From a virus (Duplodnaviria > Heunggongvirae > Uroviricota > Caudoviricetes), in IMG/VR virus record IMGVR_UViG_2713896782_000021: a DNA stretch of 8,264 nucleotides; one strand, written 5' to 3'. Position numbers and translations under genes: made by a program. Below are positions 1,651-7,565 of this stretch, piece after piece (within the stretch, counting starts at the first letter, position 1; each line of letters begins with the position of its first letter). A model generated the notes under the pieces. The model saw nothing but the letters and a program-made list of their open reading frames with translations. It was not told the origin of the DNA and searched no databases.

Positions 1651-1951
1651 GTTTTGCTGATGCGCCGTATCGTCGCTGTATTCCCTCATTAACAGAGACC
1701 GCAGCCCGACAGGGAGACTCCTCTGCGCGAGTGTGCGGGGAGAATCAAAAACGATACGCACCGGGGTTTACCGCGTTAACGGAGCGCGGCGTTGTCCCCT
1801 CATGGTCGCTGGTTCGGTGCGATGGTGGAAGAAACCGGACGATGTGTTACCTCGCAAGACCTGTTATGTCATGTGTCTGATTTGTGATTTAAGTCGGATA
1901 ATTGTCGTTGCCATTAAGCAGAGGATTGATGGCCGACAGGGTGGCATTGTT

Positions 1952-1968
1952 AGAATAAGACTTATTCT
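1952..1968. promoter_or_regulatory. 17-bp perfect palindrome AGAATAAG-a-CTTATTCT, candidate operator about 15 bp upstream of the lipoprotein gene
   Basis: Reverse complement of 1961-1968 equals 1952-1959. Overlaps a weak candidate promoter (TTGATG 1926-1931, 19-bp spacer, TAGAAT 1951-1956). AT-rich dyad with a Fur-box-like flavour (about 12/19 to the consensus by eye); that resemblance is weak. Confidence 0.3.
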
Positions 1969-1982
1969 TATCTGTGCCGGGA

Positions 1983-2315
1983 ATGAAAATGAAAAGAAAT
2001 CTTCCGTTAATTATTTTGTTGTCTTCTCTGGTTATGGGCTGTACGCAACATAAAACAGATATGCCCCGACAGTTGGTTAAGGCATTACCACAATATCCGG
2101 CCTATGCAGCGGCAAATTATATAAAGGGACGGGTTGATGTGAAGTTTGATATTGGTGCTGATGGTACTGTCACCCGAATTGAGTTTATCCGTTCAGAGCC
2201 GCACCATCTGTTTGATGAGCAGGTTGTAAAGGCGATGGCAAAATGGCGATTTGAGAAGGACAGGCCGCGTAAAGGCGTGAAGAAAACGTTTATCTTTAGT
2301 CCTTCTGCACCCTGA
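1983..2315 (+). CDS. Lipoprotein consisting of a TonB C-terminal domain (TonB_C-like moron protein), about 110 aa
   Basis: Signal peptide MKMKRNLPLIILLSSLVMG followed by Cys (lipobox-like VMGC), with Thr at +2. The mature part aligns with the E. coli TonB C-terminal domain from memory: ours PQYPAYAAANYIKGRVDVKFDIGADGTVTRIEFIRSEPHHLFDEQVVKAMAKWRFE versus TonB [56 protein letters not shown]. No TonB N-terminal TM helix and no Pro-rich spacer. Alternative start ATG 1989 has better SD spacing (GGGA 1979-1982). Confidence 0.8.
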   Translation: MKMKRNLPLIILLSSLVMGCTQHKTDMPRQLVKALPQYPAYAAANYIKGRVDVKFDIGADGTVTRIEFIRSEPHHLFDEQVVKAMAKWRFEKDRPRKGVKKTFIFSPSAP

Positions 2316-2446
2316 TTATTTCATCAGAAATTAATTATCACTCTGTTGTTATTCTGTACATTCCGGCTGGGTAAGTCTTGTTCCGCCGGGTATGAAGATG
2401 AAATATTGTTGGAGGACAGTGGGTACCTGCTCCTGTAACCGAACGT

Positions 2447-2647
2447 TCATTTCTCGTTATTTGTCATGCTGGCCGGACGCAGATGCGTTGCATCTGTTGC
2501 CAGCCTTCTCCTGCAGGCTTCAATAACCCACGCTGAAAAGTTACCGGAACCTTTATGTTCAAGGGCGATATTGATCTGTTCAATCATGTGATTGGGGAAA
2601 CGGATATTGCGGGTTGTGGTTCTGCGGGTCCGGTTTTTCGATGACAT
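2447..2647 (-). CDS. Small basic ribbon-helix-helix-like protein (resembles YlcI / DUF3950-type prophage proteins), 66 aa
   Basis: Start chosen at the internal Met (MSSKNRTRRTTTRNIRFPNHMIEQINIALEHKGSGNFSAWVIEACRRRL...) because the - strand carries AAGGAA 7 nt upstream of that ATG. Basic N-tail, then a beta-strand-like RNIRFP and two helices, suggesting an RHH fold. Similarity to YlcI/DUF3950 is from memory and unverified. Confidence 0.65.
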   Translation of the reverse strand: MSSKNRTRRTTTRNIRFPNHMIEQINIALEHKGSGNFSAWVIEACRRRLATDATHLRPASMTNNEK

Positions 2648-2688
2648 ATTTATTTCCTTTACTGATTGCCATATGACGGGGATTTTAC

Positions 2689-3054
2689 ATGGCTGAGCTT
2701 CGTACACTCCAGAGCAGAATCAAAACACTGAATACCCGACGGGTGAATATTCTGAAGGGTGAACAGCGTCGTGTCAGTGGCAGTGCACGTGTTTCCCTCA
2801 AGCGTCATATCTGGCTCAGGGATGCCGGGCAGTGCTGTCTCTGTGGTCGTGTGGTTGACCTCTGTGACAGTGAACTCGATCACCGAATTGCACTTCAGTT
2901 CGGTGGTGGTAATGAGGAGACGAATCTCTGGACGCTCTGTACCGAATGCCATCGACAAAAGTCTGCTCGTGAAGCGGCGGGTGGTATGCCGGACCCGACG
3001 CTGCCGGAGGTGTCCGGAGGTAGTGGCAGAGCGGACGACATCATCGGACTGTAA
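2689..3054 (+). CDS. HNH endonuclease (terminase-associated), 121 aa
   Basis: SD GGGGA 6 nt upstream of ATG 2689. Motifs CCLCG (CxxC)...ELDHRIALQFGGGNEETNLWTLCTECH give a His-Asn-His core with a second Cys pair (CxxCH), the classic HNH zinc-finger nuclease. It sits immediately upstream of the cos-like region and terS, the usual position in HK97-like cos phages. Confidence 0.85.
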   Translation: MAELRTLQSRIKTLNTRRVNILKGEQRRVSGSARVSLKRHIWLRDAGQCCLCGRVVDLCDSELDHRIALQFGGGNEETNLWTLCTECHRQKSAREAAGGMPDPTLPEVSGGSGRADDIIGL

Positions 3055-3057
3055 CCC

Positions 3058-3116
3058 GAGCGGGGGGGTATCATCCGGCGTAAAAAACGATCGCTCCGGA
3101 CACCGCGCCCCCTCTC
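3058..3116. repeat. Imperfect inverted repeat GAGCGGGGG ... CCCCCTCTC flanking about 41 bp (candidate cosN-type symmetric element)
   Basis: 3058-3066 GAGCGGGGG versus reverse complement of 3108-3116 (GAGAGGGGG), 8/9 match. Located between the HNH stop and terS. Assignment as cosN is inference only. Confidence 0.25.
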
Positions 3117-3144
3117 ACGCAGAGAAAAAATTCCCGTTTCAGGG

Positions 3145-3271
3145 CAGTTAACATGTTAACTGGCTGCCCGGGCATTTTTGCGGTTTTTATCTTTATTATT
3201 CAGTTTGTTGTGCGGAAAAAATGTTAACAGGCTTTTTCAGCAAATGTTAACCAGGCAGCAGTTAACATTTG
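3145..3271. repeat. Cluster of GTTAAC-AT palindromic motifs (candidate cosB / TerS-binding or regulator sites)
   Basis: 18-bp perfect palindrome CAGTTAACATGTTAACTG (3145-3162); ATGTTAAC at 3221-3228; 11-bp inverted arms CAAATGTTAAC (3241-3251) and GTTAACATTTG (3261-3271) separated by 9 bp. Five GTTAAC hexamers in about 125 bp immediately upstream of terS. Confidence 0.6.
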
Positions 3272-3342
3272 CGGCATGAGACGCCGGGAAAAATGGGCTG
3301 AACCATACCCGGCTGAGTGCGTTCTGGACCCGGGAGGAGGCT

Positions 3343-3906
3343 GTGCTGACAACGCAAAAACGAAAATTTGCGCTGGCGCTCATGTCCGGGAAAAACAAAA
3401 CAGCGTCAGCCCTTGCCGCCGGTTATTCGGCGAAGACAGCCAGGGTTAAAGGCTCGCAGCTGGCAAAAGATCCGGAGGTGCTTGCGTTTATAGCCCGTAA
3501 ACAGTGCGAGACGGTGGAGGTGGATGAGGTTCCTGTTTATCGGCAGAAAAAATCAGAGCCGGAGGATAAACCCCGTCGCCGTGAGGCGGCTGCAATACCA
3601 CAGCCGGACGAAACAAATCCGGAGATGCCACCGCCCGTGGTGATATCTCCTGGTATTGAGTATATGGAGGACGGTCTTCCCGATCCGGTGAAAGCGATGG
3701 GGCGTCTTCTGGTGGAGAACATTAATACCGACCCCAGGCTGGCGCTGGATGCGGCTTATAAGCTGGCGCAGTTCACGCACCACAAAAAAGGGGATGCCGG
3801 TAAAAAATCGGCAAAAGGTGACGCGGCGAAAAAAGCGGCTAACCGTTTTGCGGTGCCACCACCACCCCGCCTGGTGGTGAATAATGATAATGAGGGCAAC
3901 GGATGA
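3343..3906 (+). CDS. terS: Terminase small subunit (P27-family-like), 187 aa
   Basis: GTG start with GGGAGGAGG upstream. N-terminus MLTTQKRKFALALMSGKNKTASALAAGYSAKTARVKGSQLAKDPEVLAFIARKQ fits the conserved TerS helix-turn-helix N-terminal pattern (AGYS..tA...gs.L). Lys/Ala-rich C-tail. Stop overlaps the terL ATG (ATGA). Confidence 0.85.
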   Translation: MLTTQKRKFALALMSGKNKTASALAAGYSAKTARVKGSQLAKDPEVLAFIARKQCETVEVDEVPVYRQKKSEPEDKPRRREAAAIPQPDETNPEMPPPVVISPGIEYMEDGLPDPVKAMGRLLVENINTDPRLALDAAYKLAQFTHHKKGDAGKKSAKGDAAKKAANRFAVPPPPRLVVNNDNEGNG

Positions 3907-5564
3907 TACCTGTGTGGAGCACGGCCTGCCCGGACTGGGCAGAGCGCCTGAAAAAGGGGCTGTCGATTATTCCGGCTCCGATTTATCCGGAGCAGGCCGC
4001 ACATGCCCTGGCGATTTTTAAACAACTGCGGATTGTGGATGCACCGGGCAGCCCGACGTTCGGGGAGTCCTGCGCACAGTGGGTGTTTGACCTGGTGGCG
4101 GCCCTGTTTGGCTCCTACGATGCGCAGACCGGTGTACGCCATATCAAGGAAGTTTTTATCCTTATCCCCAAGAAAAACAGCAAGTCCACGCTGGCTGCCG
4201 GGATCATGATGACGGCGCTGTTACTGAACTGGCGGCAGGCGGCGGGCTACACCATTCTGGCCCCGACCGTGGAGGTGGCGGCTAACGCCTTCAACCCTGC
4301 CAGGGATATGGTACGACGGGACGATGATCTGGATGACCTCTGTCAGGTGCAGACACATATCCGGACCATCACCCACAGGGTGACGGACACCACCCTGAAG
4401 GTGGTGGCTGCCGATCCGAATACGGTATCCGGTATCAAGTCCGTGGGGACGCTGATTGATGAACTGTGGTTATTTGGCAAGCAGTACAAAGCGGAGGACA
4501 TGTTACGTGAAGCCATAGGCGGCCTTGCCTCCCGCCCGGAAGGGTTTGTGGTGTATACGACCACCCAGTCGAATGAGCCGCCAGCCGGGGTGTTCAGACA
4601 GAAACTGCAGTACGCCCGGGATGTCCGTGACGGCAAAATTCATGATCCGCACTTTCTGCCGGTGATTTTTGAGCATCCTCCTGAAATGGTGGAAAGCGGG
4701 GCTCACCTGCTGATGGAAAACCTCGCCATGGTTAACCCGAATCTCGGTTATTCGGTGGATGAGGCTTTTCTGTACCGGGAGTACCGTAAAGCCCGGGAGG
4801 CTGGTGAGGAAGCATTTCGTGGCTTCATGTCAAAACATGCCAATGTGGAAATTGGTCTTGCCCTGCGTTCTGACCGCTGGGCGGGTGCGGATTTCTGGGA
4901 GCAGCAGGGCAGGCGCGTCAGCCTGGACGATATCCTGCAGCGCGCTGATGTGGTGACGGTGGGGATTGACGGCGGGGGCCTGGATGATCTGCTGGGAATG
5001 TACGTGATTGGCCGTGACAGGGAAACCCGCGAATGGCTGGGCTGGGGCCATGCCTGGGCGCATGAAACCGCGGTGGTCCGACGGAAGAGCGAGGCGTCCC
5101 GGTTTCAGGATCTTGTTGCCTGTGGAGATATGACCATTGTCCGGCGTGTCGGGGATGACACGGCGGAAGTGGCGGAATATGTGCGTCGCATTCATGAGGC
5201 TGAGTTACTGGACCATATCGGTATTGACCCGTCAGGGGTGGGGCAGATTCTGGATTCACTGGCGGAAGCCGGGATCCCCGACGGAATTGTGGTGGGGATA
5301 AGCCAGGGCTGGAAACTGGGCGGGGCCATTAAAACCACCGAGCGCAAACTGGCTGAAGGGGTGCTGGTGCATGGTGACCAGCCCCTGATGGCCTGGTGTG
5401 TCGGCAATGCCCGGGTGGAGCCTAAAGGTAACGCCATTCTTATCACCAAACAGGCCAGTGGACGGGGAAAAATTGACCCGCTGATGGCGCTGTTCAATGC
5501 GGTCTCCCTGATGTCCCTTAACCCGGAACCGAAAAAGAAAGAATATGCGGTTTTTTTCATATAA
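3903..5564 (+). CDS. terL: Terminase large subunit (HK97-type ATPase plus nuclease), 553 aa
   Basis: Deviant Walker A-like LIPKKNSKSTLAAG; Walker B-like LIDELWLFG; ITTAG-like VVYTTTQSNE; MVNPNLGYSV; C-terminal RNaseH-like nuclease motifs VTVGIDGGGLDDLLG and GRGKIDPLMALFNAV. Translationally coupled to terS. Confidence 0.9.
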   Translation: MIPVWSTACPDWAERLKKGLSIIPAPIYPEQAAHALAIFKQLRIVDAPGSPTFGESCAQWVFDLVAALFGSYDAQTGVRHIKEVFILIPKKNSKSTLAAGIMMTALLLNWRQAAGYTILAPTVEVAANAFNPARDMVRRDDDLDDLCQVQTHIRTITHRVTDTTLKVVAADPNTVSGIKSVGTLIDELWLFGKQYKAEDMLREAIGGLASRPEGFVVYTTTQSNEPPAGVFRQKLQYARDVRDGKIHDPHFLPVIFEHPPEMVESGAHLLMENLAMVNPNLGYSVDEAFLYREYRKAREAGEEAFRGFMSKHANVEIGLALRSDRWAGADFWEQQGRRVSLDDILQRADVVTVGIDGGGLDDLLGMYVIGRDRETREWLGWGHAWAHETAVVRRKSEASRFQDLVACGDMTIVRRVGDDTAEVAEYVRRIHEAELLDHIGIDPSGVGQILDSLAEAGIPDGIVVGISQGWKLGGAIKTTERKLAEGVLVHGDQPLMAWCVGNARVEPKGNAILITKQASGRGKIDPLMALFNAVSLMSLNPEPKKKEYAVFFI

Positions 5565-5589
5565 CCCTGTTCACACTGTAACCATCATG

Positions 5590-5610
5590 AACCGCTGCGG
5601 CGGTTTTTTT
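5590..5610 (+). terminator. Candidate intrinsic terminator or attenuator between terL and the head genes
   Basis: Short GC stem ACCGC (5591-5595), loop TGCG, GCGGT (5600-5604), immediately followed by a T7 run then ATTTT. The stem is short (5-6 bp), so it may be a partial terminator that late antitermination reads through. Confidence 0.4.
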
Positions 5611-5627
5611 ATTTTCAGGAGGCTGAT

Positions 5628-7565
5628 GTGACTCTTAAACGGGCCTGTTCCCTGCTGACGGTGAAATCCTTCAGTGAGGATGAACGGGTGATCACCGGGA
5701 TTGCGTCAACGCCTTCTCCGGATCGGGATGGTGACATCCTGGAGCCGGAGGGCGCGGAGTTTGGCAGTGCGATCCCGTTTCTCTGGCAGCATGACCATTC
5801 CCGCCCGGTGGGGCAGTGTACGGTGCGCCGGGTCAGCGAAGGGCTGGAAATCACGGCAACACTGGTGAAGCCCGTACCGGATATGCCGTCGCAACTGGCT
5901 GCCCGGCTGGATGAGGTCTGGGCGGCCATTAAGACCGGGCTGGTCAGGGGGCTGTCCGTGGGCTTCCGTCCCCATGAATACACCTTTCTGGACGGAGGCG
6001 GACTGCATTTTCTGCGCTGGGAACTGATGGAGGTGTCTGCCGTCACCGTGCCCGCGAATGCGGAATGCACCATCCGGACCATTAAATCTTACGACCGCCC
6101 GTTTTCTGCCGCGTCCGGCAACCGGAAACCGGTGGTGAAAATCGCATCTTCTGCCGGCGCTGCGGCACAGTCAACAACCGTTTTTCATAAGGAAAAGACC
6201 ATAATGAATATTGGCGAACAGATTAAAAGTTTTGAAAACAAGCGTGCAGCGCTGGCAGCCTCCCTTGAGGAGGTCATGACCAAAGCCGCAGAGGAAGGGC
6301 GCACGCTGGATGTGGAGGAGGAAGAGCATTACGACAACACCGCAGCGGAAATCCGTCAGGTGGATGCGCACCTGAAGCGCCTGCGTGAACTGGAAGCCGG
6401 TAAGGCCGCCACGGCGCAGCCGGTGAAACAGGCCGGTAACGGGAATGTGGCCGCGGTGGCTTCTGCGCCGGTGATCCGTGTGGAGCAGAAACTGGATAAG
6501 GGGATTGGCTTCGCCCGCTTTGCCAAATCGCTGGCTGCGGCTAAAGGCGTCCGATCTGAAGCCCTGGAAGTGGCCCGTCGTCAGTATCCGGATGACAGTC
6601 GTCTGCATCATGTCCTGAAATCGGCAGTGGGCGCGGGGACCACCACGGATCCGCAGTGGGCAGGCAGCCTGTCTGAATATCAGGAATACGCACAGGACTT
6701 TATTGATTACCTGCGTCCGCAGACCATTATCGGGCGATTTGGTCAGGGCGGGATCCCTGCACTTCGTCAGGTGCCATTCAATATCCGTGTGCACGCCCAG
6801 GTGTCCGGCGGTGCTGCCGGCTGGGTGGGTGAGGGTAAGGCAAAACCCCTGACGAAGTTTGATTTTGAATCCATCACCTTCAGTCATGCGAAGGTGTCGG
6901 CCATTGCGGTACTGACGGAAGAATTGATCCGTTTTTCCAGTCCGGCTGCTGATGCACTGGTCCGTAATGCGCTGGCGGAAGCGGTGGTGGCGCGTCTGGA
7001 TACAGACTTTGTGGACCCGAAAAAAGCCGCAGTGGCAGATGTCTCCCCGGCGTCCATCACCCATGATGTGAAGGGCACGGCATCAACCGGTAACCCGGAT
7101 GCGGATGCCGAGGCTGCGTTTGGACAGTTTGTGGCAGCAAACCTGCAGCCCACCGGTGCGGTCTGGCTGATGTCCAGCACCAATGCCCTGGCACTGTCCA
7201 TGCGTAAAAATGCGCTGGGTCAGAAGGAATACCCGGACATGACCCTGCTGGGTGGCTCCTTCCAGGGGCTGCCGGTGATTGTCTCCCAGTACGTGGGTGA
7301 CCAGCTGGTGCTGGTGAATGCCCCGGATATTTATCTGGCGGATGACGGCGGCGTGGCAGTGGATATGTCCCGCGAGGCATCACTGGAAATGCAGTCTGAG
7401 CCGGGCGGCGACAGTACCACGCCGTCCCCGGTGGAGCTGGTTTCCATGTTCCAGACAGGCAGCGTGGCCATCCGTGCGGAGCGCTGGATCAACTGGCGTC
7501 GTCGCCGTACTGCGGCGGTGGCGGTGATCACCGGAGTGAACTACGGCAGTGCGTCCGGCGGCTGA
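5628..7565 (+). CDS. Prohead protease (S78/HK97 family) fused in frame to major capsid protein (HK97 fold), 645 aa
   Basis: GTG start with AGGAGG 5 nt upstream. N-terminal about 180 aa carry S78 protease motifs (WQHDHSRPVG, GLSVGFRP, ELMEVSAVTVPANAEC). From about residue 193 the sequence is a typical capsid N-terminal delta/coiled-coil region (MNIGEQIKSFENKRAALAASLEEVMTKAAEEGRTLDVEEEE...) followed by the capsid body. No stop codon between the two domains. Confidence 0.85.
   Translation: MTLKRACSLLTVKSFSEDERVITGIASTPSPDRDGDILEPEGAEFGSAIPFLWQHDHSRPVGQCTVRRVSEGLEITATLVKPVPDMPSQLAARLDEVWAAIKTGLVRGLSVGFRPHEYTFLDGGGLHFLRWELMEVSAVTVPANAECTIRTIKSYDRPFSAASGNRKPVVKIASSAGAAAQSTTVFHKEKTIMNIGEQIKSFENKRAALAASLEEVMTKAAEEGRTLDVEEEEHYDNTAAEIRQVDAHLKRLRELEAGKAATAQPVKQAGNGNVAAVASAPVIRVEQKLDKGIGFARFAKSLAAAKGVRSEALEVARRQYPDDSRLHHVLKSAVGAGTTTDPQWAGSLSEYQEYAQDFIDYLRPQTIIGRFGQGGIPALRQVPFNIRVHAQVSGGAAGWVGEGKAKPLTKFDFESITFSHAKVSAIAVLTEELIRFSSPAADALVRNALAEAVVARLDTDFVDPKKAAVADVSPASITHDVKGTASTGNPDADAEAAFGQFVAANLQPTGAVWLMSSTNALALSMRKNALGQKEYPDMTLLGGSFQGLPVIVSQYVGDQLVLVNAPDIYLADDGGVAVDMSREASLEMQSEPGGDSTTPSPVELVSMFQTGSVAIRAERWINWRRRRTAAVAVITGVNYGSASGG
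6204..7565 (+). CDS. Major capsid protein, possible independent product from internal initiation (453 aa)
   Basis: In-frame ATG 6204 preceded by AAGGAA (6189-6194, 9-nt spacer); the encoded N-terminus MNIGEQIKSFENKRAAL is a canonical HK97-type capsid start. Whether it is actually used is an inference. Confidence 0.45.
   Translation: MNIGEQIKSFENKRAALAASLEEVMTKAAEEGRTLDVEEEEHYDNTAAEIRQVDAHLKRLRELEAGKAATAQPVKQAGNGNVAAVASAPVIRVEQKLDKGIGFARFAKSLAAAKGVRSEALEVARRQYPDDSRLHHVLKSAVGAGTTTDPQWAGSLSEYQEYAQDFIDYLRPQTIIGRFGQGGIPALRQVPFNIRVHAQVSGGAAGWVGEGKAKPLTKFDFESITFSHAKVSAIAVLTEELIRFSSPAADALVRNALAEAVVARLDTDFVDPKKAAVADVSPASITHDVKGTASTGNPDADAEAAFGQFVAANLQPTGAVWLMSSTNALALSMRKNALGQKEYPDMTLLGGSFQGLPVIVSQYVGDQLVLVNAPDIYLADDGGVAVDMSREASLEMQSEPGGDSTTPSPVELVSMFQTGSVAIRAERWINWRRRRTAAVAVITGVNYGSASGG

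Follow-up and report, generated by a model that had tools for sequence, protein, structure and literature searches.

We find that a 288-nt gap at positions 3055-3342 of an 8264-nt stretch of DNA from a Caudoviricetes virus (IMG/VR record IMGVR_UViG_2713896782_000021), situated between the gene for an HNH endonuclease and terS, the gene for the small terminase subunit (TerS), is probably where a long-tailed Stx-type lambdoid phage has its cohesive-end (cos) site, with HNH-assisted packaging, 3' overhangs and an array of GTTAAC motifs serving in TerS recognition. The whole 8264-nt stretch, called the window below, covers the lysis-to-head junction in the late region of a phage of this kind (2851/BP-4795/1717 group). 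The position and polarity of the virion ends are shown by homology to phages whose ends have been mapped, while comparative genomics suggests that the GTTAAC repeats most likely form a cosB-like binding array for TerS. A reading made from the sequence only had described the gap as non-coding, which is confirmed by the end of the HNH gene at 3054 (PF01844) and the GTG start of terS at 3343 (PF03592).

The cut was placed by alignment with the Stx1-converting phage Lys8385Vzw (MT225100; Zhang et al. 2021), for which PhageTerm called 3' cohesive ends with the sequence CGCCCCCCCT (PMC7946995). The first 3000 nt of Lys8385Vzw align to window positions 3114-6113 at 96.8% identity, and its last 1452 nt align to 1663-3113 at 96.2%. 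In the deposited record, the right end reads ...GGACACCGCCCCCCCT (longer: ...GATCGCTCCGGACACCGCCCCCCCT) and the left end starts with CTCACGCAGAG (longer: CTCACGCAGAGAAAAAATTCCCGTTTCAGGGCAGTTAACATGTTAACTGG). These end alignments place the junction between window positions 3113 and 3114 and the overhang at 3104-3113, where the window reads CGCGCCCCCT, one base apart from the Lys8385Vzw sequence. Over the HNH-cos-terS-terL region the two DNAs are 96-97% identical and share a G-run, the GGACAC motif, the C-rich overhang, the block at the left end and all five GTTAAC copies, each of which is described below. The Lys8385Vzw paper (PMC7946995) gives the 10-mer alone, with no description of the G-run or of the GTTAAC array.

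The same placement is obtained with Pseudomonas phage D3 (Detrevirus), whose cos is cited in PMC12407980, from Sharp et al. 1990, as the experimentally known 9-nt sequence 5'-gcgccccca-3' (GCGCCCCCA). As related in the same source, a plasmid carrying the D3 cos together with putative terminase-binding flanks was transduced, whereas a plasmid without cos was not. The linear D3 record ends on the right with ...GGACACCGCGCCCCCA; the HNH gene of D3 stops 177 nt short of this terminus, its terS begins 36 nt into the left end, and its terminal 15 nt (GGACACCGCGCCCCC) match window 3098-3112 at 15/15 positions. The sequence-only reading had placed a cos site between HNH and terS and proposed a comparison with the known cos sites of HNH-associated phages; both Lys8385Vzw and D3 put the cut in the gap, and the proposal is thereby borne out. 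D3 further resembles the window in its gene order (HNH - cos - terS - terL), in its TerL family, in a G-rich block ~30 nt upstream of the cut, and in a T-tract followed by CC just inside the left end. It differs in an unrelated TerS of 126 aa, in the short distance of 36 nt from cut to terS, in the absence of GTTAA, and in an overhang reported as 9 nt. The ends of Pseudomonas phage BR322a also looked cos-like and were not used to place the cut, its record being marked "partial" and falling ~16 nt short of homologous prophages (L138, L141). A literature search for GCGCCCCCA alone returned only irrelevant primer matches.

We therefore predict, from these two phages, a 3' overhang of either 10 nt (3104-3113, as in Lys8385Vzw) or 9 nt (3105-3113, as in D3). 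The sequence-only reading had likened a GC-rich symmetric element to lambda cosN, and this view is upheld in part. The imperfect inverted repeat is indeed present, with GAGCGGGGGGG at 3059-3069 facing GCGCCCCCTCTC at 3105-3116 and 9/11 positions pairing by eye (it escaped the automated repeat search because it offers no exact 6-nt seed), and its right arm holds the cut. The nick site, however, is predicted to be the asymmetric C-rich 9-10-mer (3104/3105-3113) rather than the whole element or its centre: CGCGCCCCCT is asymmetric, and the GC-rich dyad is centred ~20 bp to the left of the cut. A cruciform or hairpin formed by this element was rejected, as its fold is no better than that of shuffled sequences, and the significance of the element lies in its conservation and not in its dyad symmetry. 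Across 47 related sequences we find four natural variants of the overhang, CGCGCCCCCT, CGCCCCCCGT, CGCCCCCCCT and CGCGCCCCGT, which differ at 3107 (G or C) and 3112 (C or G). The E. coli population harbours prophages whose overhangs are not the same, and where ends do not match, cross-packaging and circularisation could be restricted.

The large terminase subunit (TerL) points to the same type of end. TerL clade membership predicts end type (Casjens & Gilcrease, as cited in PMC12315714), and the window TerL falls in the clade of 3'-cos packagers. It shares 69.7% identity with TerL of the D3-like Detrevirus IME307 and 100% with that of phage 2851, with remoter relatives in the SfII group and among many Staphylococcus, Paenibacillus and actinobacteriophage TerLs. 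Taken together, these comparisons suggest that the site belongs to an HNH-associated, 3'-overhang cos family typified by D3 and is essentially the same cos as that of Lys8385Vzw.

Analysis of related loci reveals conserved blocks on both sides of the cut. A G-run is found at a fixed spacing, ~30-35 nt upstream of the cut, in D3, IME307, BR322a, Salmonella phage FSL SP-016 and nearly all of ~130 related loci (drawn from Enterobacterales, Pseudomonas, Acinetobacter, Janthinobacterium, Burkholderia and Brucella), and its length ranges from 7 to 12 G among the E. coli-type copies. The heptamer GGACACC is identical in D3, in 56/56 distinct D3-type loci and in most enterobacterial relatives, and it is invariant in 47 E. 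coli-type sequences. On the left-end side of the cut, the block at 3114-3136 is nearly invariant in the same 47 sequences and is recognisable as CAYGCRCAGA, an A/T-tract and TCCC across Proteobacterial relatives; its A-tract may be an intrinsic bend or a terminase contact. We regard the G-run as a separately conserved element that is cosQ-like by position alone, and any role for it is speculative.

Two further observations concern this part of the gap. The insertion sequence ISEc20 (IS110-family) sits exactly at the cos G-run in PPompW prophages and in several Stx2a records (L004:1546-3004). In these prophages the match to the window starts at ~3065, tRNA genes and Q take the place of HNH and the lysis genes on the left, and a G7 run closes the left junction as well; they have lost HNH together with half of the cos region and so are probably packaging-defective, and the G-run may be a target of ISEc20. 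Separately, a perfect 11-nt inverted repeat, GGTGTCCGGAG / CTCCGGACACC, places one arm in the 3' end of HNH (3009-3019) and the other against the cut (3094-3104). Its GGTGTCC core occurs in 49/57 E. coli-type loci, where the outer bases do not covary, and other lineages lack it.

To the right of these blocks lie the GTTAAC repeats, and every repeat was placed at, or at most 1 nt from, the coordinates given in the sequence-only reading. A repeat search recovers the 18-bp perfect palindrome at 3145-3162 (CAGTTAACATGTTAACTG, here P1), and the further copy at 3221-3228 proves to be ATGTTAAC. The pair described as an 11-bp inverted repeat at 3241-3271 (here IR2) is present with arms one base longer each, that is, 12 nt at 3240-3251 and 3261-3272 with 100% complementarity. 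In the window GTTAAC occurs 8 times against 1.08 expected, a count that none of 200 shuffles reaches, and five of the eight copies lie within 120 bp; for ATGTTAAC, the whole window would be expected to hold 0.13 copies and holds 5, all of them in 3147-3268. Folded as single-stranded DNA, 3120-3185 scores z = -3.0 and 3232-3280 scores z = -5.2. A GTTAAC at 252-257 is also present, in the context TGGTTAACCC and not TGTTAAC. The sequence-only reading had allowed that this copy (GGTTAACC at 251-258) might be coincidence, and we likewise set it aside as chance, since its flanking context differs from that of the copies in the gap.

We examined the array at 80 loci with TerS homologues in IMG/VR and at 76 loci in a set with a single genome for each GTDB species. 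The gap holds five TGTTAAC half-sites, and GTTAA/TTAAC half-sites lie 31-155 bp inside the left end. None of 48 distinct E. coli-type upstream regions has lost any of the five GTTAAC copies, and this holds also for loci in which TerS identity falls to 64-79%. When 47 distinct gap sequences are aligned, 0/38 motif positions vary, whereas outside the motifs 57/191 positions from the cut to terS do so (Fisher p = 7.5e-6). The density of GTTAA/TTAAC reaches 20-60 per kb from the G-run to the terS start, as against 0-3 per kb (with one outlier of 7.2) in the rest of the locus, across ~80 distinct loci of Enterobacterales, Pseudomonas, Acinetobacter, Burkholderiales and Brucella. Loci with a D3-type TerS served as the control: all 56 distinct ones share the G-run and the GGACACCGCGCCCCCA cut site and carry no GTTAA/TTAAC between cut and terS, whereas loci that combine a D3-type HNH with a PF03592 TerS (L113, L135 and L142) do carry the motif. 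The motif therefore follows the TerS family, and not TerL, HNH or cosN. This is the pattern expected of a small-terminase recognition site, as described for the cosB-Nu1 specificity pairs of lambda, 21 and N15 (PMC4669245).

The start of terS in relatives with a shorter gap suggests where the array came from. FSL SP-016, the sole distant phage record that matches the gap, conserves just window 3062-3160; its HNH-terS gap measures 106 nt, and its terS starts at ATGTTAACA, aligned to the centre of the window palindrome. The sequence aligned to P1 in FSL SP-016 and in 40 or more compact relatives is GTGTAAACATGTTAACAG, their terS start, and the first ATGTTAAC (ATG at 3153) is a relic of the ancestral terS start codon. 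In the compact relatives the cut-to-terS interval is ~56 nt, CTCACGCASAGAAAAAATYCCCYTYTGGAGGGTRTAAACATGTTAACAG, and ends in an imperfect version of the P1 palindrome laid over the start codon. Loci of the Pseudomonas type carry two or three GTTAAC copies spaced 13 nt apart and finish in ATGGCGTTAAC; those of the Burkholderiales type show GTTAATGGCTTTAAC.

Codon usage in the compact loci is consistent with a fixed DNA site at the terS start. The N-terminal Leu codon of TerS is TTA in 67/72 distinct compact loci, as compared with 5.8% of the other Leu codons of the same genes; for genomes whose GC content is 57% or higher, the figures are 25/27 compact loci versus 3.6% elsewhere. This bias indicates a constraint that acts on the DNA and not on the protein. 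The palindrome remains next to cos in those lineages whose terS is displaced, namely the window type, Giesbergeria L128, Comamonas L157, and Cupriavidus L144 and L152; they show extra TGTTAA copies, and their Leu codon becomes CTG, CTA, CTT or TTG. In the E. coli lineage, ~190 bp containing the extra copies appear to have been inserted between the ancestral site and the new GTG start.

It is possible, though we would put it at slightly less than an even chance, that GTTAA/TTAAC is the recognition half-site of the whole PF03592-type TerS family, in 3'-overhang cos phages across Proteobacteria. On this proposal, the site would ancestrally lie within the terS start codon (ATGTTAAC) and would have been separated from it by DNA insertion and site multiplication in the E. 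coli Stx-type lineage and, independently, in some Comamonadaceae and Cupriavidus prophages. If so, TerS would bind its own initiation region, which could couple packaging recognition to autoregulation, and packaging specificity would be written in a simple, mutable 5-bp code, with a bearing on cross-packaging among up to seven cos-compatible prophages in single enterohaemorrhagic E. coli genomes.

We note three further features of the terS start. Codons 1-3 of terS, GTG CTG ACA, resemble a decayed copy of ATG TTA ACA. A 24-codon open reading frame (ORF) encoding the hydrophobic MLTGCPGIFAVFIFIIQFVVRKKC (3153-3227, plus strand) starts at the vestigial terS ATG in the palindrome and ends in the next ATGTTAAC; it is kept in most of the 47 distinct copies, but it is frameshifted in 2 and carries several non-synonymous changes, and we judge it to be a vestigial terS start and probably not a gene. 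Public records also differ on where terS starts, the Lys8385Vzw annotation beginning 45 nt further upstream than GTG 3343.

These observations suggest a model for packaging at this site. TerS is in general an oligomer with helix-turn-helix (HTH) domains at the N terminus (as outlined in the review PMC9611059), and the window TerS, with its PF03592-type N-terminal HTH region, is the presumed reader of the GTTAA half-sites. Its N-terminal HTHs would bind the TGTTAAC half-sites at 3147-3160, 3222-3228, 3245-3251 and 3261-3267, while the A-tract at 3124-3131 and the T-tracts at 3175-3205 may, speculatively, bend the DNA. Bound TerS would then position TerL and HNH on the C-rich site, where TerL, helped by HNH, would nick the concatemer, on the top strand at 3113/3114 and on the bottom strand 9-10 nt to the left. 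The staggered nicks would leave the 3' overhang CGCGCCCCCT, the virion chromosome would begin with terS and finish with HNH, and packaging would run rightward from terS and stop at the next cos. The G-run at 3062-3068, which lies towards the right end from the cut, may take part in termination or in cutting in the manner of lambda cosQ, although this is speculative.

The part assigned to HNH is modelled on HK97, where the HNH protein gp74 works with TerL in cos cutting (Kala et al. 2014, cited in PMC9611059); its stimulation of TerL cutting here is presumed by analogy. Similar to the window, phages of the HK97 type encode a small HNH protein just before cos and the terminase genes and have an HK97-type capsid and protease (PF05065/PF04586, fused in the window), but their TerS family and cos sequence are different.

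The cos of lambda offers a second comparison. It is organised as cosQ-cosN-cosB, with R sites and the integration host factor (IHF) site I1; its symmetric cosN yields a 12-nt 5' overhang, its TerS is the winged-helix gpNu1, and no HNH protein takes part. The window has a comparable tripartite layout, namely an upstream element (the G-run in the place of cosQ), a nick site, and TerS repeats before terS. In contrast to the lambda-type sites (lambda, 21, N15 and phi80), the overhang here is, by homology, a 3' extension of 9-10 nt and asymmetric, TerS belongs to PF03592 and not to the Nu1 family, no IHF consensus is found, and an HNH gene is present. The sequence-only reading had likened the repeats to the R sites of lambda cosB; this parallel holds in that the array is conserved beyond its surroundings and tracks the TerS family, whereas it does not extend to the overhang, which is 3' and 9-10 nt long, or to IHF.

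Several points weigh against a cos site that is read by TerS through GTTAAC. The two reference phages disagree on the length of the overhang (9 versus 10 nt), and the virion ends of the window are placed by homology to mapped phages and not on this exact phage. The dyad symmetry of the GC-rich element is statistically not unusual (3055-3120, fold z = -0.6). The IHF consensus WATCAANNNNTTR has no match in 3055-3342 even when up to 1 mismatch is allowed, which leaves the analogy with lambda cosB incomplete. A PDB sequence search with TerS gave non-significant matches to the SF6 G1P DNA-binding domain (E = 0.3-0.7), and with HNH it gave generic HNH domains. The loci compared are not phylogenetically independent of one another, the D3-type control amounts in essence to a single lineage, and the displaced-terS lineages number just 3-5. 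AT-rich codons near start codons favour translation generally and could account for part of the TTA bias. Finally, binding of TerS to GTTAA is something that we infer for all members alike.

The cut could also lie at 3104-3113 while the GTTAAC repeats are inert remnants of a duplicated 5' end of the ancestral terS (ATG TTA ACN), which arose as the ~190-bp insertion displaced terS, with recognition left only to 3114-3140 and the G-run. The first ATGTTAAC does align exactly with the terS start of the compact relatives, the actual terS start (GTGCTGACAAC) resembles a decayed copy, and the block at 3114-3136 is itself highly conserved. Relics ought to decay, however, and yet no motif position varies where 30% of the neighbouring positions do; moreover, Pseudomonas-type loci carry non-coding GTTAA copies upstream of the start codon at their 13-nt spacing, TTA is kept at 93% in compact loci despite a usage of 3.6-5.8% elsewhere, and the independent displaced lineages have gained copies rather than lost them. 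We consider this explanation unlikely. An operator or RNA hairpin function for the palindrome and the inverted repeat, regulating terS/terL in late operon transcription or translation, seems to us less likely again, even though both have strong hairpin potential, the motif overlaps the terS translation start in compact relatives, and one sigma-70-like match on the minus strand is made of the motifs themselves. No terminator-like site was called in 2900-3500, neither at IR2 nor elsewhere, the hairpins (IR2 included) have no T-run behind them, and Rfam gave no match at E <= 1. Furthermore, the motif stays with cos and not with the terS start when the two are separated, it tracks the TerS family, and TerS itself has a DNA-binding HTH. 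A dual role, in which TerS autoregulates at its own start in compact phages, is compatible with these data.

That the phage instead packages by the headful (pac) mechanism, with the repeats marking a pac site, is very improbable. PF03592 TerS proteins do include those of the pac phages SPP1 and SF6 (listed in the review PMC9611059); on the other side, 3' cohesive ends have been defined for the 96-97% identical Lys8385Vzw, the defined cos of D3 suffices for a plasmid to be transduced, and the window TerL is close to the D3-group TerL and has an HNH gene adjacent to it. Recognition of a GTTAAC array by TerS at a 3'-overhang cos site thus remains our preferred account of the gap, whose features are collected in Table 1.

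Table 1. Coordinates of the proposed cos elements and of the neighbouring genes in the window.
Feature	Position	Strand	Basis or remark
DUF3950 protein gene	2447-2707	-	
HNH endonuclease gene	2689-3054	+	PF01844, E = 7.5e-7; phrog_589 HNH endonuclease
G-run (G7, then T at 3069)	3062-3068	+	Left arm of the GC-rich inverted repeat; ~35 bp upstream of the cut
GGACACC heptamer	3098-3104	+	Abuts the cut site
Predicted cosN cohesive-end sequence CGCGCCCCCT	3104-3113	+	Homology to Lys8385Vzw and D3; top-strand nick between 3113 and 3114
Left-end proximal block CTCACGCAGAGAAAAAATTCCCG	3114-3136	+	Contains the A-tract (3124-3131)
Palindrome P1, CAGTTAACA / TGTTAACTG	3145-3162	.	Two inverted TGTTAAC half-sites; core of a longer imperfect dyad (3126-3179); invariant in 47 distinct E. 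coli-type sequences
Spacer, T-tract-rich	3163-3220	.	Between proximal and distal sites; variable among relatives; may bend DNA
Single ATGTTAAC site	3221-3228	+	Invariant in 47 sequences though adjacent base 3229 varies
Inverted repeat IR2, GCAAATGTTAAC-N9-GTTAACATTTGC	3240-3272	.	Two more TGTTAAC half-sites; motif positions invariant
terS	3343-3906	+	GTG start; PF03592 on residues 2-57, E = 4.5e-8; phrog_641; alignment with relatives
terL, large terminase (ATPase + nuclease)	3903-5564	+	PF03354 and PF20441

The genes that flank the gap are arranged as in many related phages. An HNH homologue lies directly upstream of a cos-like element in 65/99 diverse related loci, and we presume that the window HNH, as the last gene at the right end of the virion DNA, is a TerL cofactor in cos cleavage. 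The GTG start of terS is preceded by a strong ribosome-binding site, GGGAGGAGG, at 3332-3340. Window positions 2600-4000 match 94 phage records at 90-99% identity, among them 2851, BP-4795, 1717, YYZ-2008 and many Stx1a, Stx2a and Stx2c converting phages. We find the gap sequence in 1278/5426 complete genomes of E. coli (median 1, maximum 7 copies each); six of its places are on plasmids, and nowhere does an annotated feature cover it. Likewise, the gap carries no annotation in the records inspected, and no cos feature is given in the annotation of phage 2851 or BP-4795.

Elsewhere in the window, a single 645-aa ORF at 5628-7565 encodes a prohead protease (PF04586, S78) fused to an HK97-type major capsid protein (PF05065). 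This fusion follows directly after terL, with no portal gene in between. A 14-bp palindrome at 2581-2594 (AATCACATGATT extended to 14 nt), inside the minus-strand DUF3950 gene, surfaced as overlapping matches to the IHF pattern on both strands.

The cos location was already known for this phage group, and as an ordinary and very common feature of E. coli prophages it is unsurprising in kind. In the searchable literature we found no description of the GTTAA half-site array, of its tie to the terS start codon or of the conserved G-run, and likewise no link of GTTAAC to a terminase and no cosB paper on HNH phages. Our reading of the GTTAA motif appears to be new, as a modest addition and not as a new kind of element.

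In sum, a precise cos fixes the true virion DNA ends and the gene order for a common prophage group that includes carriers of Stx1, Stx2a and Stx2c. Since several co-resident prophages share both the cos and the GTTAAC array, the terminase of one should be able to package the DNA of another, a point that bears on how defective prophages carrying Stx or effector genes are mobilised. The comparative result also supplies a testable hypothesis for DNA recognition by PF03592-type TerS proteins, namely a GTTAA half-site, for which the genomes themselves hold natural cases in which the site has moved and the codon has relaxed.

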